Shown piece after piece: positions 18,969 through 53,671 of a DNA stretch of 64,000 nt. The DNA comes from an uncultured delta proteobacterium (lineage in GTDB: Bacteria; Desulfobacterota; RBG-13-43-22), in the NCBI GenBank assembly GCA_963843145.1, contig CAWJJC010000020.1, positions 160,001-224,000 of the forward strand. Reading direction: 5' to 3'. The translations under genes and the position numbers were made by a program. The first letter of the stretch is position 1; each line of letters begins with the position of its first letter. The notes under the pieces were generated by a model. It made no database searches, was not told the DNA's origin, and saw only the letters and a list, made by a program, of their open reading frames with translations.

Positions 18969-18970
18969 CC

Positions 18971-25478: not shown

Positions 25479-25566
25479 CGCTGTTCCCCCTCCGGAAGAC
25501 GCTCCCGATCTTCATTTCCCGGATATTCAATTTTAAACCACCGCTTTTCATTCCCGTCTCATTTTC

Positions 25567-27441: not shown

Positions 27442-27471
27442 CGCTGTTCTCTGGATTCATTAAGCCAACAC

Positions 27472-28292: not shown

Positions 28293-28347
28293 GAAGAATC
28301 CTTTCCCGGCGGCGCATCCTCAGGGGATATTGGCGAAGGGCCCCGGC

Positions 28348-28902: not shown

Positions 28903-28907
28903 TTATT

Positions 28908-32374: not shown

Positions 32375-32409
32375 TTTCAGTTATACCCTTAAAACATTTT
32401 GATTTTTTC

Positions 32410-32716
32410 GCCCTTTTGAGTAGGTGACCACAACCTTTAACCTGAAATCATTCCTTCGTGGCCGCCGGGTCTCAGCGAAAGGGTTTTCCAAAGGTACTCC
32501 GGACCCCGAATCCGGGCCTAACTTGTTAATTTTATTTAGAGCAGACCCAAACTCAGAGGCTTTTGATGCCTCCCAGTCTTGCCCTGCCTCCTGAAAGATT
32601 TGAAAACATGGGGGCCGGGTTAGAACTTAAAAAGGCCCGCCTAGGCGGGCTGGAAAACCCTTTCGCTGAGACCCGGCGGCCATACAAGATAAGTCGGAGT
32701 ACTTGCCCAAAAGGGC
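32410..32716. repeat. MITE-like palindromic insertion between nuoF and nuoG (family B)
   Basis: Perfect 32-bp inverted repeat 32459-32490 / 32651-32682; imperfect outer arms GCCCTTTTG / CAAAAGGGC; a diverged single arm recurs at 46099-46170. Confidence 0.8.
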
Positions 32717-32736
32717 TAACCGTCGCATTTAGTGAC

Positions 32737-34038: not shown

Positions 34039-34532
34039 TAGCGATCCGATACCGGAATCTCTTGCCCGGTTTTCAGTTTTTCCAGAATCTGATCGATGCG
34101 CTCGGGGGTCAGCGGACCGTAAGGCACCCCGTTGACCAGCATGGCCGGCGCGTGATCGCAATACCCGATACAGGCCGAAGGCAGAATGGTGAACAGCTTG
34201 TCGGGAGTGATTTCCCCCACCCGGACGCCCAACTTCCGGCAAAGGTAGGCCACGACCGATTCCTCCCCAAACATCCAGCAGACGACTCCGTCACAGGCGT
34301 GAATGACGAATTTCCCCACCGGCTCCCGGTAGATGAAATCGTAGAAAGTGGCGATTTCCTCCAGTTCCAGGGGGGTCAGGCCCAGGAGATCCGCCCCTTC
34401 CTGAAGGGCCTCATCACTGAGATAGCCGCACTCTTTCTGCAGGGCGAACATCACCTCCACAGCCAGCTCCCGGGGATGATCGGTCTCGGCCATCTTTTGC
34501 CGGAGTAACTCCAAGTTCTCGCTGGACAGCAT
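34038..34532 (-). CDS. nuoE: Complex I subunit E
   Basis: IATFY, CDGVVC...CIGYCDHAP 2Fe-2S motif. Confidence 0.93.
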   Translation of the reverse strand: MLSSENLELLRQKMAETDHPRELAVEVMFALQKECGYLSDEALQEGADLLGLTPLELEEIATFYDFIYREPVGKFVIHACDGVVCWMFGEESVVAYLCRKLGVRVGEITPDKLFTILPSACIGYCDHAPAMLVNGVPYGPLTPERIDQILEKLKTGQEIPVSDR

Positions 34533-34542
34533 CCCCGGCCCC

Positions 34543-36999
34543 CTAACGATCGATATCCGGCATGATATAGTCAATGGAGCCGATAATGGCCAGCAGGTCG
34601 GACAACAGGCCGCCGCGAGCCATCAAAGGCATGGCCTGCATGTTGGCAAACCCGGGGGTCCGGATCCGCATCCGGTAGGCCCGAGGCAGACCGTCACTGA
34701 CCACGTAGTAGCCCTGTTCCCCGCGGGGGGCCTCCACCGCGGCATAGGCCTCCCCGCGGGGGATTTTCGGCCCCCGGGTGACATTGACAAAATGATGAAT
34801 AAGGCTTTCAATATCCCTCAGGGTATCGGTTTTCCGAGGAACGGTGTAGCGGTAGTCCTCACTGCCATACCGGCCGGCCGGCATCCTCCGGACGGCCTGT
34901 TCGATGATCCGCAGGCTCTGGCGCAGTTCCTCGACCCGCACCCGGTAACGGGCGTAGCAGTCCCCTTCCCTGGCCGTGGGAATATCAAAATCAAAATGCT
35001 CATAGGAGGAATAGGGGAATTGCTTGCGCAAATCCCAATCGAGGCCGCAGGCCCGCAGGTTGGGACCGGTCACCCCCCAATCCATGGCCTCCTCCAGGGA
35101 CAAGGGCCCGACGCCGCGGGTTCGGGCCTCAAAAATAGGGTTCCGGGTAGCCAGGGCTTCATACTCTTTGATCCGCTCCGGGAAAATCTTCAGGAAGGCC
35201 TCAATCGGTTCTTTCCAGCCCTGCGGCAAGTCGTCAGCCACCCCCCCGATTCGGAACCAGGAGGGATGGAGCCGACCTCCGGTGATCAGCTCGATAATAT
35301 CCATAACCTTTTCGCGGTCCCGAAAGGTGTAAAAAACCGGACCAATGGCGCCCACGTCCTGCAGGAAGGTGCCGAACCAGACCAGGTGATTGCTCAGTCG
35401 AAAAAATTCACCAAGCAGCACCCGGATGTATTGCGCCCGTTCCGGGACCTGGATCCCGGTTAGAATTTCAACCGAATTCAAGTAAGCCAGGTTATTGTAC
35501 ACCCCGGAAAGATAATCCACCCGGTCGGTGTAGGGGATGAATTGATGCCAGGACTGGTGCTCGCCGATTTTTTCCACCGAACGGTGGTGATAGCCGATGT
35601 CCAGGTCGATAGCGGAAATCCTTTCGCCCTCCAGGGAAAGGATGAAACGTATCAGGCCGTGAGAGCCCGGGTGATGAGGACCCAGGTTCAGGATCATTTC
35701 CCGGCCCTCTTCCCCGGCTTGGCGGACGAGGATGCCGGCGTCCAGAGGCTGGTATTTTTCGGCCTCGGCCCTGGTGTAGGGGGCCATCTCGGTGGCCCGG
35801 CCCGGATAATCCTTTCGTAAGGGATGGCCTTCCCAGTCGTGGGGGAGGAGAATCCGGCGCAGATCCGGATGTCCTTGAAAGCGGATTCCGAAGAGGTCAA
35901 AGACTTCCCGCTCGTACCAGTTGGCCGAGGGCCAGATATCGGTGATGGTCGGGGTTACCGGGTTTTTATCGGCTAGAGGAACCTTGAGACGAAGACGCCC
36001 GGCCGGTTCGAAGGACAGTAAATGATAAACCAGCGTATACGCCGGGTATTCTTGGGGGTCCGGACGGGGAGGCTTATCCCGGACTATTTCTTTCCCCACC
36101 GTGCCGTCTTCGATCTCGAAATTCCCCTGGCCCCGTCGGGCCGATTCATCCACAGCAGTCAGATCATCCAGGCGTAGGAACCTGGGACGGGATTCGGTCT
36201 TCAGGAAACGGAGGACCTCTTTAATCCGGTCCCCGGCGACCTCAAAGGTGGCCATATCCGAGGTTTGGGGAGTCTGGTTGAGGGCCTCGCCGAACTTTTC
36301 CTTTAGCACCGCGGCCAAGGAGCGGTCCCGGTCCGTCAGTTCTATTCTGCGGGGCGGCGGCGTCCACATCAGGTCGGAGCGGCTATCCCAAAATCGAGGA
36401 GGGGTGACGGAGGTGCCTCGGACAGGCAGGCCTTCATAGCCCGGCCCCCGGGTATCCCTGGATTTTGTCTGCCCATCGACCAGCACGGGTTTTTGAGACC
36501 CTTGAGTCCCTCCGGGCAGATGGAAAATCGAACGACTCGGCCTTTCCGACCCGATCTTCTTTTGCAGCAGCAGCAATCCCTGCAAGACGGCCTCCGGCCG
36601 AGGCGGGCAACCCGGAATATAGACATCTACGGGCAAAATTTGATCAATGCCCTGGACCACGCTATAGCCATCATACATCCCGCCGCAGTTGCTGCAGGAG
36701 CCCATGGAGATCACCCATTTCGGTTCAGGCATCTGCTCATAAAACCGCAGGATCGCCGGCGCCACTTTTTTAAAAATGGTCCCCGAGGTGATCAGGAGAT
36801 CGGACTGGCGGGGGGAACCGCGCAGGACCTCGGCCCCAAAACGGGCCATATCATAGCGGGGGGTCAGGGCCGTCGACTCCTCGATGAAGCAGCAGGAAAG
36901 TCCAAAAAAGGCGGGCCAGAGGGAATACTTCCGCGACCAGTTGACCAGCAGGTCCAAGCGGTCCAGCGCTTTATTTTTGAGCTGATCGAAGGGTTTCAA
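34543..36999 (-). CDS. nuoBCD: Fused complex I subunits B-C-D
   Basis: GLSCC, SPRQSD, GCPPRPE (B); [18 protein letters not shown] (C); [24 protein letters not shown] (D), all in one 818-aa ORF. Confidence 0.95.
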
Positions 37000-37405
37000 G
37001 GCCCGCTACCCACTCCAATCCCCGTTTCTTCCAAATATAATAAAGGCCGGCCAGCAGGAGCACAATGAAACCGGAAATCTGGAGCCAGCCGGACCAGCCC
37101 AGCTCCAGGATGGCCACGGCCCAGGCGAAAATAAAGACCGCCTCGACATCGAAAATAAGGAAAAAAACGGCCACCCGGTAAAAAGGAACGGGATAGGCGA
37201 GCCGCGCCGGTCCGCTGGGGATCAGCCCGCATTCAAAGGGCAGCTCTTTATTCGCGTTGGTTTTCTTTTCTCCCAGCCAGGAAGCAAGAAAAAGAAGGAG
37301 GACCACCAAGGCCAGGATCATCAGGCCGTAAAGAAAAAGGGCCGCGAAACCCGGTTCCCAGGGGGTTAACGTACCGGCAGTGTCTAAAGGCTGCATCGTT
37401 ATCAT
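36971..37405 (-). CDS. nuoA: Complex I subunit A
   Basis: [15 protein letters not shown], 3 TM; ATG 37405 overlaps the tal stop (ATGA). Confidence 0.92.
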
Positions 37406-38268
37406 TTCAGCAACAAAGAGTTCCAATCCTTGGAAAAACCGTTCATCCCCTTGATCGTCAGCTCATGGCTCAGATCAAATTCCTGCCAGGGTCGACTGAG
37501 GTCGATCTCCCGATAAGGGATCGCTTTTAAGCCCCCGGCAGCGTAATCAACCCCCGCCTCGGGAAGGGGAAGTCCCTGGTCGCCCCATTCCTTCAAGATG
37601 GCCGCGGGTGCGGTGATGATATCCGATCCCAGCTTCAAGGCATAAAGCAGATGATCTCTGGTTCTGACGCTGGCGCTCAGAACTTCCACATGGCCGTCTC
37701 CCGGCCCATACATCTGGAGAATGTGGGCGATCAGGTCCATTCCGTTTTCTCCCCGATCATCCAAACGGCCGATGAAGGGCGAGACGAAGACCTCCCCCTT
37801 CTTGGCCCCCCGGGTGGCCGCGTAAACGGCGGCCGCCTGCTCCTGGGAAAAACAGAGGGTCATATTGACCCGCAGCCCTTTTTGGACGGCCCCTTCGGCG
37901 GCCGTCAGCCCTTCCCGGGAAGTGGGAAATTTGATGTGGGCGTTGGGGATCCAGGAAAACATTTCCTGGCCCTGGACCAACATCCTTTCCGCCGGGGTGG
38001 CCGGGTCGGCATAGACTTCAATGGAGACGGACCCCTGAGGAATCAGCCTGGAGATCTCTCCGACCACCTGCCGGTAGAAGTCCAGGATCTCTCTTTCGCT
38101 GAACTTCCCCCCCTGGTCCAAATGCCGGCGCGCTTCCGGGTTTTTGGAGATGAGCGTCGGATTGGTCGTCTGACCGTCGAGGAATCCCAAACGACTGATG
38201 ATTTCCCTGGTTTCCTCCGGATTTCCCCCGTCGAGGAATATACGGCTCTTCAGCTTCTCCGGTCTCAT
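37402..38268 (-). CDS. tal: Transaldolase
   Basis: FLDG, TTNPTLI, SIEV (Glu), IKFP, NMTLCFS, SPFIGR (Phe); the Glu/Phe pair favours transaldolase over fructose-6-phosphate aldolase. Confidence 0.88.
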   Translation of the reverse strand: MRPEKLKSRIFLDGGNPEETREIISRLGFLDGQTTNPTLISKNPEARRHLDQGGKFSEREILDFYRQVVGEISRLIPQGSVSIEVYADPATPAERMLVQGQEMFSWIPNAHIKFPTSREGLTAAEGAVQKGLRVNMTLCFSQEQAAAVYAATRGAKKGEVFVSPFIGRLDDRGENGMDLIAHILQMYGPGDGHVEVLSASVRTRDHLLYALKLGSDIITAPAAILKEWGDQGLPLPEAGVDYAAGGLKAIPYREIDLSRPWQEFDLSHELTIKGMNGFSKDWNSLLLK

Positions 38269-42046: not shown

Positions 42047-44387
42047 TCATTTATGCCATTCATTCTTACGCCTTCCGTCTCCTATATCGACTATTCCCTT
42101 AGCAGGACCTCTCCCTGACGAATCGGCCTGGGGCGATCGGAGTGTTTCTCGATAAGTAATCAGGGCGGCCATGACCATGGGCACCACTCCCAGAAAGATA
42201 AAAATCAGGTCTCCGGGCATACGGCACCATTCGATGAAGCGCACAAAATCCTGGGTGACATAGGCCAGGCCCCGGGCGTGCCAGTACCCGTTTTGCAGCA
42301 CATCAACGAATTGCAGGACCCCGCCGGGAAATAAGTTTCCCAGGACCATCAGCGCCAGACCCAGGTTCAGCCCCCAGAAGGAAACCCGGATAAATTTTTC
42401 CGCTCGAACCCAGGCTTCGTCTTTCAGCACCTGACGGAAGGCCATGACGGTCAAGGCCATGGCCTCCATACCGAAAGCCCCCATCAGGGCGCTGTGGGCA
42501 TGGTTGGGCGTCAGCATCGTCCCCACCTCGAAATAACTGATGATGGGCAGGTTGATGAGAAACCCGAAAATCCCGGCCCCGACAAAATTCCAGAACCCCA
42601 CGGCCATTAAAAAATAAAAGGTCCACTTATGCGGCAGGGTCCTGGAGTGTCGCCTCCCCGGGTCACCTTGGACAAAATCCCAGGCATCCAGGGTCAGGAG
42701 AGTCAGCGGCACCACCTCCATGGCCGAAAACAGGGCCGAGAAGGCCAAATTAAAAGTAGGACTGGCCGGTCCAGTACCAGTGATGCCCGGTGCCGATGAT
42801 ACCGCTGCCCAGAAAGAGGATGGCATCCAGATAAATGACCCGGACCGCGGTCTGCCGGGAAACCAGCCCCATTCGGAAGAAAGTCACCGCCACCATGACC
42901 GTCACCAGCAGTTCCATGAACCCTTCCACCCAAAGGTGGATGATCCAAAAACGCCAGTTATCCACCAGGGTGTAGTTGGTGGTGCTGCCGAAAAAAAAAG
43001 CCGGCAGGTAAAAGAGGGGAATGGTTCCTGCCGCCACCAGGAAAAGGAGCGAGATTTCGCGGCGTTCCGGGTCGTTTAGGGCCGGTCTTACCTGGCGCCA
43101 GAGCAGAATGACCCAAACCGCCAGTCCAACGGCCAACAGCACCTGCCAGCCTCTGCCCAGATCCAGGTATTCCCATCCTTGGTGGCCGAACCAGAACCAG
43201 TACTTTCCCAGGAGATTATTGATTCCCAGGAACTCCCCCAGGAGGCTCCCCCCGACCACCAACACCAGGGCCCAAAACAGAAAATGAATACCTGGAATTT
43301 GTCCCCGGTGCTCTCCGCCATCCAAGGATGAAGCCAGCAGCAGCCCGCCTCCGATATAGGCGGTGGTGATCCAGAAAAGGGCCAGTTGCAGATGCCAGGT
43401 GCGCAAGATATTGCTCGGAAAAATCTGGTAGAGGTCAAACCCGTAAAAACTTCCCGGTTCTGCCCGTGAATGGCCTACCGCGGCGCCTATCAAGGTTTGG
43501 GCCAGAAAGAGCAGGGCCACAACGACGAAAAATTTGATGGTGGCCCGTTGGCTTGGCGTGGCCAGTCCCGGCAACAGGGCGGGATTGGGCCTAGGCGCCC
43601 CTCTCCAGCCCAGGTAGCTGAACTTGCCGAGGGCAAAGAGAATGGCGGCTGTCCCGGCCAGCAGGGTTATCAGGCTCAGGGCACTCCAGAGATAAACCTC
43701 TGGCGTCGGGGTGTTACCCACCAGCGGGTCATAGGGGAAATTATTGGTATAAGAATAAGACCGGCCGGGACGCCGGGTTACAGCGGCCCAGGCAGTCCAG
43801 GCAAAAAAGGCTGTAAGTTGCCGCAGCTCGACCGGGTCTTGGATATACTTGGCCTTCAAGCCTCCATTGAGGGCCGGGTGGACGAAATAATCCGTCCAGC
43901 GGACCACCTGCCTTTGAAAGGACAGTTCCTCGGGCCTTTGAAACAGCAAAATTCGGGTTCGGGGATCATAGCGGTTTTCTTTGAGCAGCTCCCGGGTCCG
44001 AGCCTTCAGCGCCTCGTTTTCTTCGGGAAGCAGCTCCGGGGGATTCCGGCCGAAGCCAGAACGGGCCAGGAAGAAGCCGGTATCCAGCGCTAGGGTATGC
44101 AGATATTCGGCTGAGAAGTCCGGTCCCAGGTAGGCGCCGTGTCCCCAGATGGTGCCGTTTTCCATCAGCCCATACTTGAGGAAGACCTGCTGGCCGGCCC
44201 GGATGTCCTCACCGGTAAAGAGGGTCTCCCCAGCTTCGTTGACCACTTTAGCGGGGACAGGCGGCGCCCCTCGGTAGGCTAAGATGGCAATCCAGCCCTG
44301 GATGCCGAAACAGACCAAGAGGATAAAGATGACGGCCCGCCGCCACCAGGGAGAGACTTCCTCGCTCTGTTGTTCCTGATCTACCAT
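42047..44387 (-). CDS. norB: Quinol-dependent nitric oxide reductase qNOR (+1 frameshift near 42760)
   Basis: GTIWGHGAYLGPDF, SYTNNFP, TWHLQL, IHLWVEG..E, GTGHH; after the shift SAMEVVPL and HAHSAL. Confidence 0.92.
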
Positions 44388-44687
44388 ACTATTTCTCCGG
44401 CCTCCCGTCCAGGATCCCCGGTGTTGATGAAATCAAAGCAAAAAGACGGGGAATTCGGAACTTTTATTTTGATAATACCATAGTAGGTTTCAAGGGGTAA
44501 ATAGAGTCAATTGACTATTTTTAAACCGAAAAAGCTGTATTTATTCATGACATCCTGTTTTAATCCTCTTCTTTCAGAATATTTCCAAAGGCGGTCTAAC
44601 GATGATCCGGTAGAGGGGATAGATTTGTTGACGGCTGCCTCCAAAAGGTTCTCTTTCAAGTTTGGCCAATCAACTTAGAGCCCCCCC

Positions 44688-45410
44688 CTATCCCTTGCTA
44701 TCCCCTCTTCCTTGGACCAGTACCTCCCTGATATATTGAAAAAGCTCTTTGGCTTGACTAAGGGAAATCTGAGTATCAGGGAACGAGGGCATGGGCGCCT
44801 TAGGATGACGAATCAAAGGAATAAAGGCATCGAGATCCTTCAACTTGGATGAATTTCTGATCGGTCGGTCAGGCCTGATTAAATTTCCTCCTTGGGGATG
44901 ACAAATGACGCAGTTAGCTACGAATATTTTTTCTCCGGCGACGTAGGCTCTTGCACCCTTTGGCGTTTTTTCTTCGTAAACCAATTGGGCGCCAAAAAAG
45001 CCTAAAAGAACCACGATAAAAAGGCCAAGCGTATAGATAATCAGCAGGGCCTTTGACTTGGATTCCTTCTTAAATTTGAAAAATAGGGTCGCCGACAGTA
45101 AAAGAATGAATAAGATCCCTGACAAAACCATCTTTATCTTTATAGGAAGCAGCCAGGCGCCCCGATAAAAATGCTGCCAATCCATCAGACCGAACAGAAC
45201 AACCGGAAACCAAAAGAGAAAAGCCAGAATGATGCAATGGCCTGCAGATCGGACAAGCCCCTCCTTTTTGGAAAGGAGCCCCAGCCAGCCGAATATAAAT
45301 GCCCCGGCCACCAAGCCTATAGGCAGGTGAACCAAAGCGGGATGGATAGGATGTTTATATCCAAACTGACCTGCGAGTTGGTAAAAATAGTTGGCCCATG
45401 ATTCGATCAT
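44688..45410 (-). CDS. DUF2231 membrane domain fused to a C-terminal cytochrome c6-like domain
   Basis: HPIHPALVHLPIG, 4 TM, G..LVY, then CVICH...PMPSF. Confidence 0.8.
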   Translation of the reverse strand: MIESWANYFYQLAGQFGYKHPIHPALVHLPIGLVAGAFIFGWLGLLSKKEGLVRSAGHCIILAFLFWFPVVLFGLMDWQHFYRGAWLLPIKIKMVLSGILFILLLSATLFFKFKKESKSKALLIIYTLGLFIVVLLGFFGAQLVYEEKTPKGARAYVAGEKIFVANCVICHPQGGNLIRPDRPIRNSSKLKDLDAFIPLIRHPKAPMPSFPDTQISLSQAKELFQYIREVLVQGRGDSKG

Positions 45411-45563: not shown

Positions 45564-46025
45564 TTAGCCTCTGATATTGTCCTGGGCCTCTCGACTCTCG
45601 ATACGCTTTTTGAGGGCCTGGCTCATCTTATCGAACCCCAGGCGGATATTTCCGGCCATCCTCCCCCATAATAGGGGAACCAGTAGCCCGCTAAACAGCT
45701 CTTTTTGTACAAATTTGACTTTTGACCCTCCCAACGGTTCAATGGCGAAAAGGTGTTCCCCGTCAAAAATTTTGGGTACCAGCCAATGGCCCACCCAGCG
45801 AAATTCATGTTCGACTTCAACCCTTAAAAGCACCGGCCGGATGGTTATCTTTGGAAAGTGGGGGGTCTGGACTACGGCCTTCAGTCGCGAGCCGGTCTGA
45901 AGGGTTCCGGCGATTCGAAGGATAAAGGGATTCCACTCGGGGTAGCGATTGAAATCGGTCAATACTTCCCAGACCCGGGTTGCTGTCCCCTCGATTTCGA
46001 TTTCGGTTTCAATGCTTCTGGTCAT
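45564..46025 (-). CDS. SRPBCC (START/polyketide cyclase-like) lipid-binding protein
   Basis: IETEIEI, VWEVLTDFNRYPEWNPF, FDGEH.F, ALKKRIE. Confidence 0.85.
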   Translation of the reverse strand: MTRSIETEIEIEGTATRVWEVLTDFNRYPEWNPFILRIAGTLQTGSRLKAVVQTPHFPKITIRPVLLRVEVEHEFRWVGHWLVPKIFDGEHLFAIEPLGGSKVKFVQKELFSGLLVPLLWGRMAGNIRLGFDKMSQALKKRIESREAQDNIRG

Positions 46026-46098
46026 GGAATGATTCCCGGCCAAACCGATCTCTTGACCCTGAAGTCCATTTGGCCCGCTCTCTCTAGCAGAGAGACGC

Positions 46099-46170
46099 TT
46101 CGCCCTTTTTGGGGGGGTACCCTCCATCTACGGTGGGACCGCCGGGTCTCGCCAAAAGGGTTTCCCAAAA
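46099..46170. repeat. Single arm of repeat family B
   Basis: TCGCCCTTTT...CCGCCGGGTCTC.CCAAAAGGGTTTCCC has the same layout as the left arm at 32408-32490. Confidence 0.6.
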
Positions 46171-46188
46171 GAATGTCCAGGGCCGAGG

Positions 46189-47877
46189 TTATAGCTTACC
46201 GGATCGAAAGATGGAGAAAATGAGCCACAGGCCTAGGAGCGTGGCAATGACATAGCCGACCAGACCAAAGAGGGCGGTGATGGAAATGGTTTTTAGACCA
46301 AAGAGATTTAAACTCACCTCGAAAACCCTTTGACTCGAATTGAGGACCAGGGCGGCGGCGATAATGGAGGCCGAAATAATGAAGCCGACGGTCAACCGGT
46401 TGACCCCTTTGGCAAACTGGCTATTCAGCTTTTCCAGGCCGGTGTGCCGGAACTCCAACCGCTGGTTTCCCTGGGCGGTCTGCCGGAGGATGTCATGCAG
46501 CAACTTAGGCATCGTCCTCAGGTAACCGCCCGTGGTTCGGACTTCCTTGCCCAGGTCTCGAAAAAACTTTTTGGGATTGTAGCGGCGCTCCAGAAATCGC
46601 TCCGCGTAAGGCCGGGCCGCTTCCAGCAGGCTGGCCTCACTACCCAGGATCTTGCCCAGGGCTTCGGTTTGGATAAAGGTTTTCAGCAAGAGCAAAATGT
46701 TCCGGGGCAGTCGGATATGGTATTTGTAAACCAGTTGCATGACTTGATCGTAGACGTCCCTGACCGAGATCGTCTGCAGGGAGCGGCCGTAAAAGGGCTC
46801 GCTGATGTCCTTGAGATCCACTTGAAAGCTTTTCAGATCCATGGTCTCTTCGTCGATGATTCCCGCATCCAGCAAGGCCTCTAAGACCAGGTCATAATCG
46901 TGTTCGGCATAGCCCAGGAAGAGGTTGGCGATTTGGCCCATCATCTGTTCGTCCAGATACCCGGTAATGCCGAAATCCACCAGGGCCACCCGGCCGTCGT
47001 ACATGACGATGGTATTGCCCGGGTGCGGATCGGCATGAAAAAAACCGAATTCCATCAACTGCCGGGAAAAGGAGCGCAACCCGATGTCGGCTATTCCCTG
47101 GGGATCCAGGCCCTGGGCTCTTATGGTTTCCACCTGATCCATCTTGATGCCGTCGATATGTTCCATGACCAGAACGGACCGGCTGGTATAGTTCCAGTAC
47201 ACCTTATGGATATAGATTTCTTCGGAGTCCTTGAAATTCAGGGCGAACTTTTCAATACTGCCGGCCTCAATCAGCATGTCGAGCTCCCTGAAAATAACCC
47301 GCTCGAACTCCTTGACCAGGTTGCGCATTCCCACGATCCGGCCCATTTCGAAATACTTTTCAATTTTTTCGGCCAGATAGTACATCAAGCGGACATCCTG
47401 ACGGATCTTTTTGTCTATCCCCGGCCGGATCACCTTGACGGCCAGCCTTTCCCCGGTCGAAAGCTCGGCCAGATGAACCTGGGCTACCGAGGCCGCGGCT
47501 AGCGGTTCCGGATGGAAGGTCTGGAAAATTTCCGCCAGCGGCCGCTTTAGTTCGGCTTCGATGATCTTTTTGATCTCAGGAAAAGGAACAGGAGGGACGC
47601 GGTCCTGAAGTTTCTTAAACTCCTCGATGTAATCCGACGGGAACAGGTCTGCCCGGGTGCTCAGGAGTTGGCCCAGCTTGATGAAGCTGGGGCCCAATTC
47701 TTCGAGGGCCAGGCGGATGCGTAACGGCGAGGGGAACCCTGATTTAAAGATGAGGTCTTTGTCCTGGAAGCCCTTTTCTTTTTTCTCGGCCCGACCGGAG
47801 AGCTGTTCCCACACGTCTCCCAAGCCATGTTTGCACAGCACCCGGGTGATGGCCGCGAACCTCCTGAATCCTTTCAA
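46189..47877 (-). CDS. ubiB: UbiB/AarF/ABC1 atypical kinase
   Basis: LGPSFIKLGQ, AAASVAQVH, VKV, FHADPHPGN, DFG; two C-terminal TM. Confidence 0.9.
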   Translation of the reverse strand: MKGFRRFAAITRVLCKHGLGDVWEQLSGRAEKKEKGFQDKDLIFKSGFPSPLRIRLALEELGPSFIKLGQLLSTRADLFPSDYIEEFKKLQDRVPPVPFPEIKKIIEAELKRPLAEIFQTFHPEPLAAASVAQVHLAELSTGERLAVKVIRPGIDKKIRQDVRLMYYLAEKIEKYFEMGRIVGMRNLVKEFERVIFRELDMLIEAGSIEKFALNFKDSEEIYIHKVYWNYTSRSVLVMEHIDGIKMDQVETIRAQGLDPQGIADIGLRSFSRQLMEFGFFHADPHPGNTIVMYDGRVALVDFGITGYLDEQMMGQIANLFLGYAEHDYDLVLEALLDAGIIDEETMDLKSFQVDLKDISEPFYGRSLQTISVRDVYDQVMQLVYKYHIRLPRNILLLLKTFIQTEALGKILGSEASLLEAARPYAERFLERRYNPKKFFRDLGKEVRTTGGYLRTMPKLLHDILRQTAQGNQRLEFRHTGLEKLNSQFAKGVNRLTVGFIISASIIAAALVLNSSQRVFEVSLNLFGLKTISITALFGLVGYVIATLLGLWLIFSIFRSGKL

Positions 47878-47945
47878 CCCTGAAACCTCCTCTGCGTAAA
47901 CCTAAGGCCATCCGCTCCTGACGGGTCAGCCGGAAGCGCCGGGGC

Positions 47946-48185
47946 TCAGGATGGGGCCTCGCCCTTGACCTGCGGCCATTTTTTTGAAATCTCTTCGCGC
48001 TTCGTGGCCTCCGCCACATAGCGCTCCAGGTAGCCGCATTCGGCACAAACATAGTTGTCCAGGGAAGCAATGGAAAAAAGGGTTATGGGGATACTGTTAC
48101 TTCCGAAGGGGCCGAATTTGGCGGGGATCTCCGCCCCCTGGAAAACTTTGTCCGAGCCGCACTTGGGGCACTTTCCGTTTTTCAC
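47946..48185 (-). CDS. Small zinc-ribbon protein
   Basis: GTG start with GAGGAG RBS; CPKCGS...VCAECGYLERY. Confidence 0.75.
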   Translation of the reverse strand: MKNGKCPKCGSDKVFQGAEIPAKFGPFGSNSIPITLFSIASLDNYVCAECGYLERYVAEATKREEISKKWPQVKGEAPS

Positions 48186-48261
48186 TTTAGCATCTCCTCT
48201 GACGACGGGCCAGTTAAAACGTTCAGGCGGGCTGAAGCAGAACATTATTGGCAATGGAAAT

Positions 48262-48300
48262 AGTATAAGAGAGGAAAGGGAATAGGGTCAAGGATAAAAA
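48262..48300 (-). promoter_or_regulatory. Putative sigma70 promoter (Zn-ribbon/ubiB unit)
   Basis: TTTTATCC-TTGACC-18 bp-TATACT. Confidence 0.55.
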
Positions 48301-48346
48301 TGGGCCCTCGGCTCCATTCCGGCATAATCGCTTGACAGGAAACAGC

Positions 48347-48375
48347 TTGACAGTCTCCGGATGTCCCGTTATCTT
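48347..48375 (+). promoter_or_regulatory. Putative sigma70 promoter of the ino1-epimerase-ubiE-methyltransferase operon
   Basis: TTGACA-17 bp-TATCTT; CTTGACAG is also repeated 15 bp upstream. Confidence 0.55.
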
Positions 48376-48481
48376 TTCGATGAATGTCTGAGCGCTGTCC
48401 CTCTTGCAGATGAACTCTTCGTTGGGTGGCTGTTCTCGGCAACAATAGAAAAAAAAGAATTGGAATTTGAGGCCCTCCGCC

Positions 48482-49675
48482 ATGAAAAATTCGTTTTCTG
48501 CTCATCCCGGGCCCCTCCTCCTGCTGATTGCCGGGGCCAAGGGCGCCGTGGCCTCGACCGTAGCCGTTGCCGTACTGGCTCTCCGGCGGGATCCCGGGTC
48601 TATCCTTTCCAGCCTGACCACGGCAGACAAATTTCCTTACCTGGGACCGCCTCAGGCCTTTCACCTGGCAGGCTGGGACCAAAGCCGGAAGACATTGCCC
48701 GAGTCCATTGAAGCGCACGGCGTTCTTCCCGAGCACCTCTGGAAGCCCTGCCAATTCGACCTAAATCAGATGACGATCCGGGAGGCCCCGGCGCCGGATC
48801 TGGATTTCGGAACCACCGTCGAACGGCTCCGGGAGGATATCCGCTTCTTCTGCGATCTGTTCCCCGAGGCGCGGCCCGTCTTCGTCAATCTTTTACCCGC
48901 CGCCCGGCGAACGTTCCCGCTGGGCTGCCAAAGTCTCTCCGAACTCACCGCCCTGCGGAAAGCCCCCGAGCCGGTGGATTTAGCCTACACGGCCGCCGCG
49001 GTGCTTTCCGGAGTGCCGGTGGTGAATTTCACTCCCAATGAGATCGAAATTCCGCCCCTGCTTCACGAAGCCGTGGAGCGGGGAGTGCCGATCGCCGGGC
49101 GGGACGGCAAGACCGGGCAGACCTATCTGAAAGTGGTTCTGGCCTCGGCCTTGAAAGCCAGAAGATTGTACGTCGATGGCTGGTACAGCCTTAATATCCT
49201 CGGCAATGCCGATGGGAAAAACTTGATGGAACCCGGCAGGGCGGAGGGAAAACTGATCAACAAGACCGAAATCCTGGATGAACTTCTGGGCTATCCGGTG
49301 GGGGAGAGGTATCAGACCCCCTCACATAAAGTGCATATCGATTATTACCCTCCCCGGGGGGATGCCAAGGAAGCCTGGGACGTGGTCGATTTCCTGGGAC
49401 TCTTCGGACTTCCCATGAGCCTCCGCCTCAATCTTCAGGGCCGGGACTCCATTCTGGCGGCGCCCCTGGTGCTGGATCTGGCCCGCTGGATGGCGGCCCT
49501 GCAACAGGCTGGAAAATCAGGACCGGTCCCGGAGTTGGGCTTTTACTTCAAGAAACCCGTGGGGGATAATCCCCCCCTGACCTTTGAGGACCAGTGGCTC
49601 GCGCTGCAGCGTTTGGAAGCGTCTTGCGACCGGATCCTCTCTTCCCCCCGTCGGGGACACCCTCCGGTTCAATAA
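48482..49675 (+). CDS. ino1: Myo-inositol-1-phosphate synthase family protein
   Basis: GAKGAVAST, GWD, VNFTPN, GRDGKTGQT, NILGNADG, GDAKEAWD, DSILAAPLVLDL, YFKKP. Confidence 0.88.
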   Translation: MKNSFSAHPGPLLLLIAGAKGAVASTVAVAVLALRRDPGSILSSLTTADKFPYLGPPQAFHLAGWDQSRKTLPESIEAHGVLPEHLWKPCQFDLNQMTIREAPAPDLDFGTTVERLREDIRFFCDLFPEARPVFVNLLPAARRTFPLGCQSLSELTALRKAPEPVDLAYTAAAVLSGVPVVNFTPNEIEIPPLLHEAVERGVPIAGRDGKTGQTYLKVVLASALKARRLYVDGWYSLNILGNADGKNLMEPGRAEGKLINKTEILDELLGYPVGERYQTPSHKVHIDYYPPRGDAKEAWDVVDFLGLFGLPMSLRLNLQGRDSILAAPLVLDLARWMAALQQAGKSGPVPELGFYFKKPVGDNPPLTFEDQWLALQRLEASCDRILSSPRRGHPPVQ

Positions 49676-49685
49676 GGAGCCTCGA

Positions 49686-50543
49686 GTGAAATTCGGATAC
49701 AGCACCAATGCCTTTGTCAAATTCTCCCTGGTAGAATCGGTGGAAAAAATTGCCCGGCTGGGTTTCGGGGGCATTGAAATCATGTGCGACCGGCCTCACC
49801 TCTATCCCCCCGATTTCGGAACCGCAGCGCTGGTCCAACTCCAAGAGCTCCTTCAGGCCCGGGACCTGAAAGTGACCAACTTGAATAGTTTCACCCTCTT
49901 TGCCGTGGGAGATACCTACCTGCCGTCCTGGATCGAACCGGAAAAAGAGAGAAGGGCTATTCGCATCCGCCACACCCTGGACTGTCTCAAGGTAGCGGCT
50001 CGCCTGGGATGCCAGAACATCTCCGTCCCGCCCGGCGGGCCCCCGAATGGCTTTTCCCGACCGGAGGCGGTCGCTCTTTTCCATCAGGGCTTGGAACAGG
50101 TCCTGCCCCTGGCGGAGTCCCTGGGGGTCAAGGTCCTGGTGGAACCGGAACCGCAGCTCCTGATTGAAAATAGCCTCCAGTTCAAGTCCTTCATTCAAGA
50201 GGTGGCCTCGCCCGCTGTGGGTTTGAATTTTGATATGGGCCATTTCTTTTGCGTGGGAGAGGACCCGGCGGCGGCCTTTGAAGAACTCTTTCCCTGGGTG
50301 GGGCATGTCCACCTGGAGGATATCGCCGCGAGCCGGGTTCACCAACACCTCATCGCCGGACAGGGAACGCTGGCCTTCCTGGATATCTTCAGGACCATGT
50401 CGCGCCTGAGCTACCGGGGCGATATCAGCTTGGAACTCTACCCCTACACCGACAGGCCGGAGGAGGCCGGTAAAGCCAGTCTCCTTTACCTGCTGCCCCT
50501 CTTTGAGGAGGCGGGACTGCCGATAGAAGGGCCCTCCCGGTGA
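49686..50543 (+). CDS. Sugar phosphate isomerase/epimerase (xylose-isomerase-like TIM barrel, IolE/IolI superfamily)
   Basis: GTG start with AAGGAG RBS; metal ligands in VEPEP, FDMGH, HVHLED, LELY. Confidence 0.85.
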   Translation: MKFGYSTNAFVKFSLVESVEKIARLGFGGIEIMCDRPHLYPPDFGTAALVQLQELLQARDLKVTNLNSFTLFAVGDTYLPSWIEPEKERRAIRIRHTLDCLKVAARLGCQNISVPPGGPPNGFSRPEAVALFHQGLEQVLPLAESLGVKVLVEPEPQLLIENSLQFKSFIQEVASPAVGLNFDMGHFFCVGEDPAAAFEELFPWVGHVHLEDIAASRVHQHLIAGQGTLAFLDIFRTMSRLSYRGDISLELYPYTDRPEEAGKASLLYLLPLFEEAGLPIEGPSR

Positions 50544-50559
50544 CCGGAAGCGTAAGGAG

Positions 50560-51375
50560 ATGACGTCTAAAACTTCCCGCGGCTGGGGGAAAGAAAGCCA
50601 GGAACTGAAGCCGGTGACCTCCTCTAAAGCCGAAGAGGAAAAGGCCCATTTCGGATTCCAGGAAATTCCGGCCCAGGAAAAGGTTAAGTGGGTGCGGGAA
50701 CATTTTGATTCGATCGCCCGCAAGTACGATGTAATGAATACCTTGCTGAGCTTCGGAATTCATTACCTGTGGAAAAGGAAGGCGATCCGGCTTCTGGGAC
50801 TAAAACCGGGTGACCGGGTTATCGATGTCTGCGGCGGAACCGGCGACCTTTCCGTCCTGGCGGTGAAAAAAGTGACTCCCTCCGGCCTGGTGGTCTTATA
50901 TGATATTAATCGGAAGATGATGGCGGCGGGAAAAGGGAAGTCAACGAATAGAGCCTCTCGAGAAAAAATCCGCTATGTCCAGGGCGACGCCGAAGAGATC
51001 TCTTTTGGAGCCCAGGAGTTTGACGCCGCCCTGGTGGGATTTGGGATCCGGAACCTGACGCACCCGGAGGAGGGTTTCCGAGAGATGTACCGCGTCCTGA
51101 AACCCGGGGGGAAGTTCCTCTGTCTTGAGTTCTCGAAACCAACCGCACCGCTCTTTCGCCGGCTCTACGATTTCTATTCCTTCCGCCTGATGCCCTTTAT
51201 AGGGCTTCTCTTCGTGGGGTCGCGAAAACCCTTCACCTATCTCCCCGAGTCGATCCGGATGTTTCCTTCTCCGCAGAAATTAAGCGCCGTTCTGGAGGAG
51301 ATCGGTTTCTCCCAAGTCACCTACCGATATCTGACCAACGGTATTGCGGTCATCCATTGGGGCCTCAAAAGATGA
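50560..51375 (+). CDS. ubiE: Ubiquinone/menaquinone C-methyltransferase
   Basis: HFGF, F.SIA.KYD.MN.LLSFG.H..W, DVCGGTGD, GFGIRN, LEFSKP, YLPESI..FP. Confidence 0.9.
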   Translation: MTSKTSRGWGKESQELKPVTSSKAEEEKAHFGFQEIPAQEKVKWVREHFDSIARKYDVMNTLLSFGIHYLWKRKAIRLLGLKPGDRVIDVCGGTGDLSVLAVKKVTPSGLVVLYDINRKMMAAGKGKSTNRASREKIRYVQGDAEEISFGAQEFDAALVGFGIRNLTHPEEGFREMYRVLKPGGKFLCLEFSKPTAPLFRRLYDFYSFRLMPFIGLLFVGSRKPFTYLPESIRMFPSPQKLSAVLEEIGFSQVTYRYLTNGIAVIHWGLKR

Positions 51376-51385
51376 GGACGTCATC

Positions 51386-51982
51386 GTGAAACTGAACTGG
51401 GCGGAGCGCTGGGTGGTGAATAACCCGCTCCGGGTCTGGGAACAACGGCTCGAAATCCGGAGGTTCAAAAGGATGATGCCCCTCAAACCAGGCGCTATCG
51501 CCCTAGAGGTGGGTTGTGGCCGAGGCGCCGCAGCCCGCTTGATCTTTAAGGAATTTCAGCTCTCGCGGGTTTACGCCATGGACCTGGATGTCCGGATGGT
51601 TCGGAAGGCCCAGGACTATCTGGCCCTCCGCGGAGAAGGACCGGTGCCCCTCTTTGTGGGAAATGTGTCCCGCCTCCCCCTGAACCCGGAATCCCTGGAC
51701 GCGGTTTTTGGTTTTGGGGTCCTGCATCATGTGGTGGATTGGCGTCTCGCCCTGGCTGAAATCGCCCGCGTCTTGAAACCGGGGGGGGTCTATTATATCG
51801 AAGAACTCTATCCGGCCCTCTACCAGAACTTCCTAACCCGGCGAATCCTGGTTCATCCGGCGGCGGACCGATTTTTTAGCCCTGACCTGAGGCAGGCTCT
51901 GCAACAAGCCGCCCTCCCCCTCAAGAGGGCCCTGGAGGTTAAACATCTTGGCCTTCTCGGTGTATCCGTCAAAGAAGGCTGA
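51386..51982 (+). CDS. Class I SAM-dependent methyltransferase
   Basis: LEVGCGRG, MDLD, FGVLHHV, RVLKPGG. Confidence 0.88.
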   Translation: MKLNWAERWVVNNPLRVWEQRLEIRRFKRMMPLKPGAIALEVGCGRGAAARLIFKEFQLSRVYAMDLDVRMVRKAQDYLALRGEGPVPLFVGNVSRLPLNPESLDAVFGFGVLHHVVDWRLALAEIARVLKPGGVYYIEELYPALYQNFLTRRILVHPAADRFFSPDLRQALQQAALPLKRALEVKHLGLLGVSVKEG

Positions 51983-51991
51983 ACAGGCGGT

Positions 51992-52705
51992 TCAGTCTCT
52001 CTCGAGGGGAAAGGTCAATTGAGCGCCAAACCAGCCAATGACGGCGGCCAGGGGTAACAGGGAAAGGATGAGCAGCGAATAAATCAGGCTGGCCAAGCTG
52101 AAAGCCTTGAGGAGTTCCGGGACGGTGATTCTCCAGAGGAAGGCGACGATTTCCGTACAGAACAGGATGACCGACACTTTCTTTTTGATGGCTACGGGTC
52201 GGACCGGTTTCGCCAGGTAGTTCAGCCACCAGGTATAGTAGCCGGTGGCCATGGCCAGCGGAGTGAAGAGAATCCCGGCTCCCAGACAGTTCAAGGCGGT
52301 TAGTTCAAAGGACCGGACCCCGGTTAAAAGATAGAGCAGATTGAACAGGGTGGTTGAGAACATAAAAACGATCGGGAAGTGGATGGTCATCGGATGGGGA
52401 TGCCGCCGGAGCATGGGGAAACGGGAAAGAAGCCGGGACAAGGACTCCGGTATTTCCCTTTCGGCACCCTCCCCTTTTTTTAAAACCGCCACCTGAGGGT
52501 ATCGTTCCAGGACCTCCGTTCCATGGGGCGCACCCTGGATATCTGTAGTCAGATCCTTCCCGGCGTGGTGACGTTTCATGTGCAGGCCACCTTTCCACAA
52601 TTTGCTTTCGCTCACGTCGAATACCTTGCCCTGGTGGGCGATGTAGATCGGTTTTCCATCTTGCCCGTTATGGGCTGACATTTCCCTGGAATCAATTTCT
52701 TTCAT
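51992..52705 (-). CDS. Cytochrome b5-like domain fused to a DUF2231 membrane domain
   Basis: GKVFDVS.S.LW.GG.H..RH.AG.DLT...APHG, then HPHPMTIHFPI and 4 TM. Confidence 0.85.
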   Translation of the reverse strand: MKEIDSREMSAHNGQDGKPIYIAHQGKVFDVSESKLWKGGLHMKRHHAGKDLTTDIQGAPHGTEVLERYPQVAVLKKGEGAEREIPESLSRLLSRFPMLRRHPHPMTIHFPIVFMFSTTLFNLLYLLTGVRSFELTALNCLGAGILFTPLAMATGYYTWWLNYLAKPVRPVAIKKKVSVILFCTEIVAFLWRITVPELLKAFSLASLIYSLLILSLLPLAAVIGWFGAQLTFPLERD

Positions 52706-52717
52706 TCACCTTCCTTT

Positions 52718-53671
52718 TCAGAGGAGATCTTGAATCATCAAGGTAAGGCTGACCACCGCCAGCAAGGAGAACGGATAGTAGCTGGCCCGGTTAAAAAGGA
52801 CGGAGGCCTGAAGTTTCTCCTTGGTCCGGTATAGGCGGTAGGTCGGCAGGAGAAGGAGATAGAGCCCCGCACCTATCGAAACGGCCACTGCGGGAAGTTG
52901 GAAGGCTACCCGGGAAATGGAAAAGAGAACGACGTTCAGCCCGACAGCCAGCAGGAGCGAAAAAAGAATAATGGCCCAGGACCAGTCCGGCCCGAACCGG
53001 ACCGGGATCGTTTTGGCCTGGAGCATTTTGTCCGCTTCCACCTCGGTCCAGTCGGCCGGGATGTTCTGACCCCCGATTTCCCAGAAAAAAAGCCACAGAA
53101 AAAGGATGATCAGGAAGGACCAGGAAGGGCGGGGATCAACGGCGAACACCGCCGCCAGGCCCCCCGCGGTTTTCACCATCCCGCTCACCAGAGCGCGATA
53201 AGGACTGGTCCTCCAGAGGAGGCAATAGACCGTTTCCAGGGCACAGCCGCCCAAGAAGATGATCAGGCAGATCGGATTCAGCAGGTAAGCCCCGATCAAG
53301 GCCAGAAGGCCCCAGGCGATTGTCCAGAGCAGCGCCTCTCCGAAACCTAAAAGGCCGTGCGCCAAGGGATGGGGGACCAGGACGGAGTCCAGGTAATGGT
53401 CTATATCACGGAAACCAACCCGTTCTAATTTCTCCCGGTCCGCTCGATAATCTACCAGATCGTTCAGGGCATAAACCGCCGTGTAGCCGGCAAAGGCGGT
53501 TATGATACCCAGCAGGGCCACCCGCAGCGGGGGAACGGCGCCATACCCTAACAGGGCGGCCAGGGCGGGAGTAGCCATGTCCAGCAATCCGTGGGGGGTC
53601 CTGGAAAGGGCGAAAAAAAATTTTAATCGGGAAAGGCTCGACCTTGATTTTTTAAGCGGCGCAGCATTCAA
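52718..53671 (-). CDS. UbiA-family prenyltransferase
   Basis: NDLVDYRAD first aspartate motif, HPL..G, second motif DWTEVEAD...KTIPVRFG; ~8 TM. Confidence 0.88.
   Translation of the reverse strand: MNAAPLKKSRSSLSRLKFFFALSRTPHGLLDMATPALAALLGYGAVPPLRVALLGIITAFAGYTAVYALNDLVDYRADREKLERVGFRDIDHYLDSVLVPHPLAHGLLGFGEALLWTIAWGLLALIGAYLLNPICLIIFLGGCALETVYCLLWRTSPYRALVSGMVKTAGGLAAVFAVDPRPSWSFLIILFLWLFFWEIGGQNIPADWTEVEADKMLQAKTIPVRFGPDWSWAIILFSLLLAVGLNVVLFSISRVAFQLPAVAVSIGAGLYLLLLPTYRLYRTKEKLQASVLFNRASYYPFSLLAVVSLTLMIQDLL

Follow-up and report, generated by a model that had tools for sequence, protein, structure and literature searches.

A conserved UbiA/UbiE/DUF2231 gene core in Desulfobacterota, its partial association with a cyclitol phosphate synthase-like module, and its possible role in making a second quinone-type lipid

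In this work we have analyzed a 64-kb stretch of DNA (the window, to which all positions refer unless a contig is named) from the genome of a sulfate-reducer-type bacterium of the Desulfobacterota (contig CAWJJC010000020.1), and in particular a group of genes between positions 45564 and 53671 that a first-pass annotation, made from the letters alone, had interpreted as a biosynthetic cluster for an inositol-derived quinone. When the 50 open reading frames (ORFs) of the window were scanned with Pfam and NCBIfam profiles, the nine genes of the proposed cluster were all found where that annotation had placed them (Table 1): those for a SRPBCC/START-fold protein, a UbiB kinase, a Zn-ribbon protein, a sugar-phosphate cyclase related to myo-inositol-1-phosphate synthase (MIPS) and referred to here as Ino1-like, a xylose-isomerase-like TIM-barrel enzyme (TIM), a UbiE-type C-methyltransferase (UbiE2), a second class I S-adenosylmethionine (SAM) methyltransferase (MT2), a membrane protein combining cytochrome b5 and DUF2231 domains (b5-DUF2231) and a divergent UbiA prenyltransferase (UbiA-div). 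The genes from Ino1 to MT2 do form the tight unit described earlier, with gaps of 10, 16 and 10 bp according to the ORF list, the first and the last counted from GTG starts at 49686 and 51386, respectively. Also as described, no ubiC, ubiD, ubiX, flavin or ring hydroxylase, U32, men or mqn gene was detected among the 50 ORFs.

Table 1. Features of the window, with the genes under study first.
Feature	Position	Strand	Evidence
SRPBCC/START-fold protein	45564..46127	-	Polyketide_cyc2 54 bits
ABC1/UbiB atypical kinase	46189..47877	-	PF03109 253 bits; TIGR01982 436 bits, cut-off 488
Zn-ribbon protein	47946..48254	-	weak Zn-ribbon matches only
Divergent promoter-like region, Zn-ribbon/UbiB unit vs Ino1 operon	48262..48375	both	consensus matches only
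Ino1-like sugar-phosphate cyclase	48482..49675	+	Inos-1-P_synth 103 bits (cut-off 27), NAD_binding_5 72.5 bits (cut-off 25)
Xylose-isomerase-like TIM-barrel enzyme (TIM)	49686..50543	+	PF01261 134 bits
UbiE-type C-methyltransferase (UbiE2)	50560..51375	+	PF01209 252 bits
Second class I SAM methyltransferase (MT2)	51386..51982, ORF open from 51344	+	Methyltransf_11 80 bits
Cyt-b5 + DUF2231 membrane protein (b5-DUF2231)	51992..52705	-	Pfam, both domains
Divergent UbiA prenyltransferase (UbiA-div)	52718..53671	-	PF01040 87 bits (cut-off 34)
DUF2231 membrane domain + c-type cytochrome fusion	44688..45410	-	DUF2231 52 bits, Cytochrome_CBB3 32 bits; beside qNOR
Cu-ATPase, DsbD_2, c-type cytochrome, CcoO, CcoN	8237-15325		
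Alternative complex III (ACIII)	15341-21958		
Nuo, with fused NuoBCD	22825-37426		
qNOR + DUF2231-cytochrome c fusion	42047-45410		

A search with UbiA-div gave 120 relatives, and the 80 loci kept cover Desulfobacterales, Syntrophobacterales, Desulfatiglandales, Syntrophorhabdaceae, Desulfomonilia, Desulfobulbaceae and strain NaphS2 (L140); cultured or enriched Desulfobacterota, such as this strain, are therefore among the carriers of the cluster or of parts of it. Within 8 kb of UbiA-div, b5-DUF2231 was present in 43 of the 80 loci, UbiE in 36 (in 30 of these with at least 53% identity) and MT2 in 25, and a homologue of the DUF2231-cytochrome c fusion was located directly upstream in 15. At the same distance TIM was found in six loci and Ino1 in five, while the Zn-ribbon gene and UbiB were both present in seven, the former accompanying UbiB in every locus that held it; this pair also occurs in genome G001 (G numbers designate the genomes of our sample, G000 being that of the window). 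In the set formed by 74 fetched UbiA-div loci plus the window, neighbours within 6 kb included a fumarase-class lyase (11 of 75), DsbD_2 (9), CydA (8) and CydB (7). The core is thus composed of UbiA-div, b5-DUF2231, UbiE2 and MT2 and is recurrent across Desulfobacterota, with the Zn-ribbon/UbiB pair joining it less often. Since the same genes recur together in many genomes, their association is not due to chance and the cluster is real and conserved, as first proposed, although its membership has to be revised: UbiB is linked to it only occasionally, in those seven loci, and the SRPBCC gene should be left out, no homologue being found in the 80 UbiA-div loci or in 80 loci collected with Ino1 (160 in total), nor in L001, the close relative discussed below.

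Counterparts of several of these genes exist elsewhere in the host genome. Genes of the futalosine pathway are located on the same contig (C20:687276-693799), around 480 kb from the cluster, and comprise MqnE (502 bits, cut-off 434), MqnC, in two ORFs, the decarboxylase MqnL (TIGR03701, 649 bits) and MqnP (PRK12886, 329 bits), along with an MTAP-like phosphorylase and a hydrolase of the aminofutalosine deaminase family. A housekeeping UbiE/MenG lies behind rpoA-rplQ at C3:153380 (NF001244, 222 bits, cut-off 216), a canonical MIPS on C27 (TIGR03450, 427 bits) and a second ABC1 kinase at C27:450078, window UbiB being one of two paralogues. The UbiA, UbiE, UbiB and Ino1 proteins of the window are therefore all extra paralogues. 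They are also dissimilar to those counterparts in the two cases compared directly, UbiE2 being 35% identical to the housekeeping UbiE and UbiA-div showing no BLASTP similarity to MqnP. As for other quinone routes, which the first-pass annotation had suggested looking for, neither MenB nor MenD was found above cut-off in the genome, the best UbiG match reached 47 bits (cut-off 103) and the best match to the Ubi-OHase model, for the hydroxylases UbiH/F/I, 21 bits (cut-off 225); UbiU/V were not searched for.

These data bear on the simplest alternative, namely that window UbiA, UbiE and UbiB merely complete or duplicate the futalosine menaquinone pathway while Ino1-TIM belongs to ordinary inositol metabolism. 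The pathway is indeed incomplete as detected, with no MqnA or MqnD (PF02621) above cut-off either here or elsewhere among the 21 genomes of the GTDB order, and UbiE enzymes do methylate demethylmenaquinone. However, prenyltransferase and decarboxylase are already provided by MqnP and MqnL within the mqn cluster, the housekeeping UbiE and the canonical MIPS are encoded elsewhere, and UbiA-div obtains only 24 bits (cut-off 375) and 19 bits (cut-off 420) on MqnP models. Besides, MqnE and MqnC are present in G003 and G020, two genomes devoid of an Ino1-like gene. We regard this explanation, which the first-pass annotation had named as part of what would undo its proposal, as very improbable. Despite the absence of MqnA/MqnD above cut-off, MqnE and MqnC were found in five of the 21 genomes of the order, so that non-homologous or very divergent substitutes may carry out those steps. 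Ino1-TIM was considered as such a substitute and rejected, given the gene content of G003 and G020. Another candidate, the binding protein encoded beside MqnP, is NMT1/SsuA-like, has its own ABC ATPase and permease and gives no PF02621 match; its relative in G017 reaches 23 bits with that profile (cut-off 26).

The proteins of the core differ in how far they can be assigned. The classification of UbiA-div rests on profile hidden Markov model scores, and it reached no NCBIfam family: its best matches are archaeal-type prenyltransferase/DGGGP-synthase models (PRK12884, 59 bits, cut-off 269; PRK12883, 29 bits; PRK12882, 27 bits), the score with the 4-hydroxybenzoate polyprenyltransferase model TIGR01474 is 23 bits (cut-off 275), and no UbiA-family relative was found in the PDB by phmmer. 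Two Asp-rich stretches are maintained, with N70, D71, D78, D207 and D214 present in at least 95% of 75 sequences, and the subfamily is large, at least 4378 of 8000 scored candidates matching at E 1e-10 or better. Apart from this subfamily, a 574-residue ORF of the host genome (G000:C28:242938-244662) joins IspH (TIGR00216, 301 bits) to a UbiA-like prenyltransferase domain, and ORFs of 580-584 residues with weak UbiA-domain matches exist in G001, G005 and G019.

UbiE2 passes the cut-offs of TIGR01934 (245 bits, cut-off 158) and of the equivalog-level UbiE model NF001244 (226 bits, cut-off 216), and obtains 277 bits with the MpqE model NF052510, whose cut-off of 335 it does not reach, and 276 and 266 bits with proteobacterial UbiE models. 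The corresponding values for the housekeeping copy are 182, 192 and 179 bits, around 85-95 bits lower, and by these scores UbiE2 leans to the benzoquinone-type enzymes. MT2 did not reach any specific NCBIfam family and its PDB matches are generic methyltransferases only. Window UbiB remains below the cut-off of PRK04750 (379 vs 667 bits), as it does with TIGR01982.

In the predicted model of b5-DUF2231 (pLDDT 84), the cytochrome b5 domain matches the archaeal cytochrome b5 6vz6 (Z 15.4, 47% identity) and the DUF2231 part is a four-helix membrane bundle, for which structure searches returned only generic four-helix bundles (Z up to 12.9, within helical-bundle noise), so that no functional conclusion is drawn from them. 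The motif RHPHPMxxHFPI contains three histidines (H101, H103, H108) that are invariant in 40 sequences, and DUF2231, with this conserved His triad, resembles a so far unstudied redox module of the membrane; in the literature searched, the domain appeared in one database paper only. It is found in the window fused once to a c-type cytochrome (44688-45410) and once to cytochrome b5 (51992-52705), and a lead from the ESM Atlas (score 0.81) points to perhaps a further fusion to rubredoxin-like domains, that resource giving otherwise only generic UbiA and DUF2231 names. The presence of a haem-binding domain and an invariant His triad in b5-DUF2231, and the linkage of the set to bd, cbb3, qNOR, DsbD_2 and Cu-ATPase genes, could also suit a role in cofactor modification for terminal oxidases, in which UbiA-div and b5-DUF2231 would act in the manner of haem O and haem A synthases and the methyltransferases would modify the cofactor. 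Yet UbiA-div gave no haem O synthase match at E 0.01 or better, when even MqnP of the same genome obtains 82 bits there, UbiE-type enzymes are quinol methyltransferases, and we know of no need for farnesylated haem in bd, cbb3 or qNOR enzymes; this role can hardly be credited.

With respect to the Ino1-like protein, it falls far below the MIPS equivalog TIGR03450 (43 bits, cut-off 638), its best PDB matches being nonetheless MIPS enzymes (7nwr, 163 bits; Archaeoglobus fulgidus 1u1i, 138 bits). The six residues that we take to be the catalytic set of the A. fulgidus enzyme, from the mutant structures 3qvs-3qw2 (D225, K274, K278, K306, D332 and K367), all align to identical residues in the 1u1i alignment. 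When 70 Ino1-like sequences were compared with seven ordinary (Bacteroides-type) MIPS of the same phylum, D208, K210, K257, K261, K296, D322 and K357 were conserved in at least 95% of the former and identical in the latter, and 68 positions were invariant in both groups. The WCGSTE stretch of all seven ordinary MIPS gives way to NLLPA in 90% or more of the Ino1-like sequences, which also present two deletions, of around 16 and 14 residues, and 35 further MIPS-invariant positions fixed to a different residue. The retention of the catalytic Lys and Asp residues makes the enzyme look functional, and taken as a whole its sequence points to a neofunctionalised cyclase more than to another ordinary MIPS.

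TIM was originally placed in the IolE superfamily, and this holds at that level (PF01261) although not as an IolE orthologue, its score with TIGR04379 being 30 bits (cut-off 290); with the EboE model it also obtains 30 bits (cut-off 250). In the PDB, its sequence matches best that of MJ1311 (60 bits), an uncharacterised protein, followed by Art22 (35 bits) and by AsbF (32 bits), an aromatising 3-dehydroshikimate dehydratase. Such matches are at superfamily level and do not fix the reaction, and nothing useful was found on the function of MJ1311 and Art22 in the literature searched. At least 95% of 63 sequences share the metal-ligand-type residues E153, D183, H209 and E250; with these kept, and the weak AsbF match, TIM also looks like a functional enzyme.

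The search with Ino1 yielded 179 relatives, and the best 80 loci, all from Desulfobacterales-type assemblies and with 56-83% identity, were examined. TIM follows Ino1 in 51 of the 51 loci with at least 4 kb of downstream sequence, so the two genes are an obligate pair. In most of these closest relatives the pair stands alone, often after Cu-ATPase and cbb3 genes: a heavy-metal (copper) P-type ATPase is located directly upstream of Ino1 on the same strand in 15 of the 80 loci (gaps of 108-447 bp), with CcoN nearby in 12, CcoO in 9 and an NrfD-type gene in 11. MT2 and UbiB are present in two Ino1 loci each. Other neighbours of the stand-alone pair are an ABC exporter, an FtrD-like protein, rubrerythrin and a Crp-type regulator.

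For co-occurrence at genome level, 401 genomes sampled evenly from the phylum were used, with thresholds of above 400 bits for Ino1-like orthologues and at least 285 bits for the UbiE2 type. UbiA-div was detected in 46 genomes, UbiE2 in 47 and both in 33. The Ino1-like gene was present in 12, full-length in 11 and as a remnant in G009; UbiE2 accompanied it in 11 of the 12 (vs 36 of the other 389 genomes) and UbiA-div in eight (vs 38 of 389), counts which, the genomes being related, are descriptive and do not represent a statistical test. Nine of the 11 genomes with a full-length gene have Ino1 within 3 kb of UbiE2 on the same strand (G000, G004, G044, G084, G119, G161, G181, G223 and G249), and they belong to five GTDB families (f1, f25, f43, f73 and f93), which confirms that ino1 and TIM are linked to ubi-like genes in other genomes. 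A compact form with five adjacent genes, Ino1, TIM, UbiE and MT2 followed by UbiA in the opposite orientation, is found in G044 and G119; in G223 the order is cydA-cydB-Ino1-TIM-UbiE, on a single strand, and in G161 and G249 the Cu-ATPase is directly upstream of Ino1. G163 has Ino1-TIM followed by DUF169, without UbiE2. The contig of G181 ends straight after MT2, at the expected UbiA position, so that an assembly artefact may explain why UbiA-div is not seen in it. Within the order of the host (21 genomes), the full arrangement is present in G000, G013, G015 and G017, with a fragment in G012. In G009 (C46:1052-1267), 72 residues from the N-terminus of an Ino1-like protein, with 64% identity, remain directly upstream of UbiE2, and this is a relic of a deletion of Ino1-TIM. 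G004 (locus L001), of the same genus as the host and with around 85% nucleotide identity, lacks both the SRPBCC-UbiB-Zn-ribbon block and a UbiA-TauE block.

From gene identity, paralogy, synteny and co-occurrence, which are what the analysis shows, we infer that the core probably makes a second quinone-type lipid, in addition to menaquinone; the chemical steps given here, like the product, are all inferences. UbiA-div would attach the polyprenyl chain, UbiE2 would C-methylate the ring and MT2 would add further methyl groups, on O or C, with the Zn-ribbon/UbiB pair assisting in the way UbiB does in other quinone pathways and b5-DUF2231 acting as a membrane redox partner. That Ino1-TIM supplies the ring of this lipid is possible, though somewhat less likely than not. 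In such a scheme the NAD-dependent Ino1-like cyclase and the metal-dependent TIM would most likely convert hexose phosphate to an inosose or inositol phosphate, and isomerisation and elimination would then give a polyhydroxybenzene, with no participation of chorismate, a decarboxylase or a hydroxylase. Inosose minus two waters is tetrahydroxybenzene, with the oxygen pattern of ubiquinol, and the path put forward in the first-pass annotation, from hexose phosphate through inosose phosphate to polyhydroxybenzene by elimination, is plausible and has a published analogue in the ebo/thallusin proposal discussed below. The product would serve the neighbouring chain, formed by complex I, ACIII, the cbb3 oxidase and qNOR, and the bd oxidase in other genomes. 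The combined reading, of an aromatic lipid other than menaquinone, prenylated, methylated and of the benzoquinone type, whose ring would come from the cyclitol module where this is present, is proposed here tentatively, as falling somewhat short of probable; we go no further because the Ino1-TIM pair is dispensable in most UbiA-div genomes and is often alone by cbb3 assembly genes.

Several observations count against this combined reading and need to be set beside it. Of the 46 genomes with UbiA-div, 38 have no Ino1-like gene, so the cyclitol module is not a universal ring source, and in those lacking the pair, such as G001, which has UbiA, b5, MT2, UbiE, Zn-ribbon and UbiB, the ring must come from elsewhere. 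G009 lost Ino1-TIM and still keeps UbiE2 and UbiA-div, and conversely G004, at 94% completeness, maintains Ino1-TIM-UbiE-MT2-b5 and is devoid of UbiA-div. Around Ino1, UbiE follows in only nine of the 51 loci with enough downstream sequence (nine of the 80 closest) and UbiA is near in one of the best 80. The co-occurrence counts overstate the support, because related genomes are not independent. Among the proteins, MT2 shows no similarity to UbiG past the shared fold (22 bits), and ABC1 kinases appear above cut-off in 12 of 14 control genomes of menaquinone-only bacteria. There is no oxidoreductase in the cluster to convert inositol phosphate to inosose, and the model therefore needs either the cyclase to release a keto intermediate or TIM to act on the phosphate. 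Finally, no report of a non-menaquinone quinone in these lineages was found in the part of the literature covered by our search.

Part of these data would also fit two separate systems, a core lipid whose ring comes from another source, such as an aromatic acid or a phenol, and an Ino1-TIM pair making a soluble cyclitol or sugar-derived metabolite, perhaps a protectant or an oxidase-linked factor, merely co-regulated with the genes of oxygen and nitric oxide (NO) respiration. The many UbiA-div genomes devoid of Ino1, the pair directly behind the Cu-ATPase, with CcoN and CcoO near it and no quinone genes, the rubrerythrin, Crp-type regulator and ABC exporter next to stand-alone pairs, and the DUF169 arrangement of G163 all point in that direction. 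On the other side, in the window Ino1-TIM and UbiE2 lie on the same strand with only 10-16 bp between genes, the pair adjoins UbiE2 in nine of 11 genomes, two genomes have the five-gene compact form, and UbiE2 is much more frequent in genomes with the Ino1-like gene than in the rest. Since Ino1-TIM is found inside the UbiE2 operon in five families, a shared pathway is the best explanation, and two unconnected systems seem somewhat unlikely, if worth keeping in mind. The sugar-derived ring route of the first-pass annotation is sustained in its link between Ino1-TIM and UbiE2 and weakened by the 38 UbiA-div genomes that do without the cyclase; its interpretation as a whole is partly supported.

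The most extreme form of the proposal, in which Ino1-like, TIM, UbiA-div, UbiE2 and MT2 would constitute a complete route from glucose 6-phosphate to a ubiquinone-like polyoxygenated, methylated polyprenyl-benzoquinone, is in our opinion decidedly unlikely. If true, neither oxygen nor shikimate would be required, nor any decarboxylase or hydroxylase; otherwise anaerobic, menaquinone-using Desulfobacterota would gain a second quinone of higher potential for their ACIII-cbb3, bd and qNOR branches, and the DUF2231 fusion proteins would be dedicated redox partners of the new quinone. To our knowledge, the rings of respiratory quinones are made, in every route described, from chorismate or a related aromatic precursor, and those of the benzoquinones must then be hydroxylated, either by enzymes that depend on O2 or by UbiU/V. 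Building the ring from a sugar by way of a cyclitol would be, if true, a third possibility, and an oxygen-free one; it would bear on the handling of oxygen and NO by strict anaerobes, since the cluster travels with genes for bd, cbb3 and qNOR enzymes, and would provide one more piece of data for the debate over the origin of high-potential quinones. Even with the ring-supply idea left aside, there remain a widespread and uncharacterised UbiA subfamily, its fixed partnership with DUF2231, an unstudied membrane redox protein, and an apparently neofunctionalised clade of MIPS to which a TIM-barrel enzyme is an obligate partner. We found no description of an Ino1-linked quinone cluster in the literature searched. 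According to a survey (PMC13386864), Desulfobacterota are mostly menaquinone producers and the classical O2-independent ubiquinone pathway is restricted within them to class GWC2-55-46; the accessible portion of that survey contains no mention of a cluster of the type found in the window.

The remainder of the window is a respiratory island (Table 1), with pentose-phosphate genes also in it. The lineage of the source genome is usually regarded as anaerobic, and ACIII, a cbb3-type oxidase, DsbD_2 and Cu-ATPase are grouped at 8237-21958. The NuoB, NuoC and NuoD domains (Oxidored_q6, Complex1_30kDa and Complex1_49kDa) are contained in a single 818-residue ORF at 34543-36999. The Zn-ribbon gene and Ino1 are separated by 227 bp, in which there are promoter-like sites facing both ways, with sigma-70-like sites identical at 10 of 12 positions on each strand (+ 48347-48375; - 48291-48262), by consensus match only. 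The word GCTTGACAG appears there twice, 14 bases apart, at 48331-48353, spanning the -35 of the promoter-like site upstream of Ino1, and may be a regulator site.

Three genes are split into two overlapping ORFs each: qNOR (42047-42826/42750-44387), 6-phosphogluconate dehydrogenase (39876-40481/40111-41313) and MqnC (G000:C20:688387-688869/688841-689407). Contigs of two sequencing runs (the RNA library X17 and the DNA run X1) have one C more than the assembly after position 49643, close to the Ino1 3' end, where there is probably a 1-nt assembly error. The split ORFs and the extra C together suggest single-base indel errors of the assembly rather than pseudogenes. In metatranscriptome contigs of three wetland studies, parts of each of the six genes that run from Ino1 to UbiA were found with 90-99% identity, one contig spanning Ino1/TIM and another b5-DUF2231/UbiA; presence in an RNA library does not prove transcription, and these contigs were not counted as evidence.

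Comparison with known systems helps to place the cluster. The Ino1-like protein has the same fold and family, by Pfam, as MIPS (7nwr, 1u1i) and the five-membered cyclitol phosphate synthase 6k96, and it differs from MIPS in the NLLPA stretch, the two deletions, the TIM gene always next to it and the coexistence with a canonical enzyme in the genome. The futalosine pathway (MqnA-E, MqnP, MqnL/M and MenG) likewise relies on a UbiA-family prenyltransferase and a UbiE-type methyltransferase in its late steps, but the window genes are additional, dissimilar paralogues of the host's own mqn/MenG set.

The ebo operon (eboA-F), recently linked to thallusin, likewise combines a sugar-phosphate cyclase, a xylose-isomerase-like TIM barrel and a UbiA-type prenyltransferase. 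This resemblance, together with the archaeal-type/DGGGP-synthase models as best NCBIfam matches of UbiA-div, could indicate a non-aromatic prenyl-cyclitol lipid, similar to what was proposed earlier for ebo, in which UbiA-div would O-alkylate the cyclitol phosphate made by Ino1-TIM, in the way DGGGP synthase does with glycerol phosphate, and the methyltransferases would decorate it. The evidence on UbiE2, which passes the quinol-acting equivalog UbiE model NF001244, and on TIM, which fails the EboE model, runs counter to that idea. Furthermore, no TatD (EboB) or alkaline-phosphatase-family (EboF) gene was detected among the 50 window ORFs, in line with the initial view that the other ebo genes are absent, and, from what is available of a recent ebo/thallusin preprint (10.64898/2026.05.21.724671), the ebo product is now itself proposed to be aromatic. 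A prenyl-cyclitol lipid appears quite improbable to us. The same preprint proposes, in that part, a sequence from cyclitol to aromatic ring to UbiA-type prenylation, and the use by Actinomycetota of Ino1 plus two isomerase/dehydratases instead of EboD. The window also differs from ebo in the absence of EboA, in the presence of UbiE, MT2, UbiB and b5-DUF2231, which are no ebo genes, and in its context, respiratory in one case and of secondary metabolism in the other.

The last comparison is with the pathways of the high-potential benzoquinones, namely ubiquinone (Ubi), plastoquinone (Plq) and methyl-plastoquinone (Mpq), in which a UbiA-family prenyltransferase, a UbiB-type kinase, a UbiE-type C-methyltransferase and a further class I methyltransferase are likewise found. 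Relative to them, the window cluster has no chorismate lyase, UbiD/UbiX decarboxylase, hydroxylase or UbiG, its UbiA is very distant from the families of 4-hydroxybenzoate prenyltransferases, its UbiE and UbiB stay below the equivalog cut-offs for MpqE and UbiB, respectively, and a sugar-phosphate cyclase and a TIM enzyme occupy the place of ring supply. The score of its UbiE with the MpqE model is as high as those with UbiE models. Judged by gene membership, the cluster fits neither the ebo nor the Ubi, Plq, Mpq or Mqn pathways. In the portion available of a recent study (PMC11874023), mpqA, mpqB and mpqE are described as the conserved core of high-potential quinone pathways, the other steps being alternative, and it is this published core, of prenyltransferase, kinase and C-methyltransferase, that the composition of the window core corresponds to.

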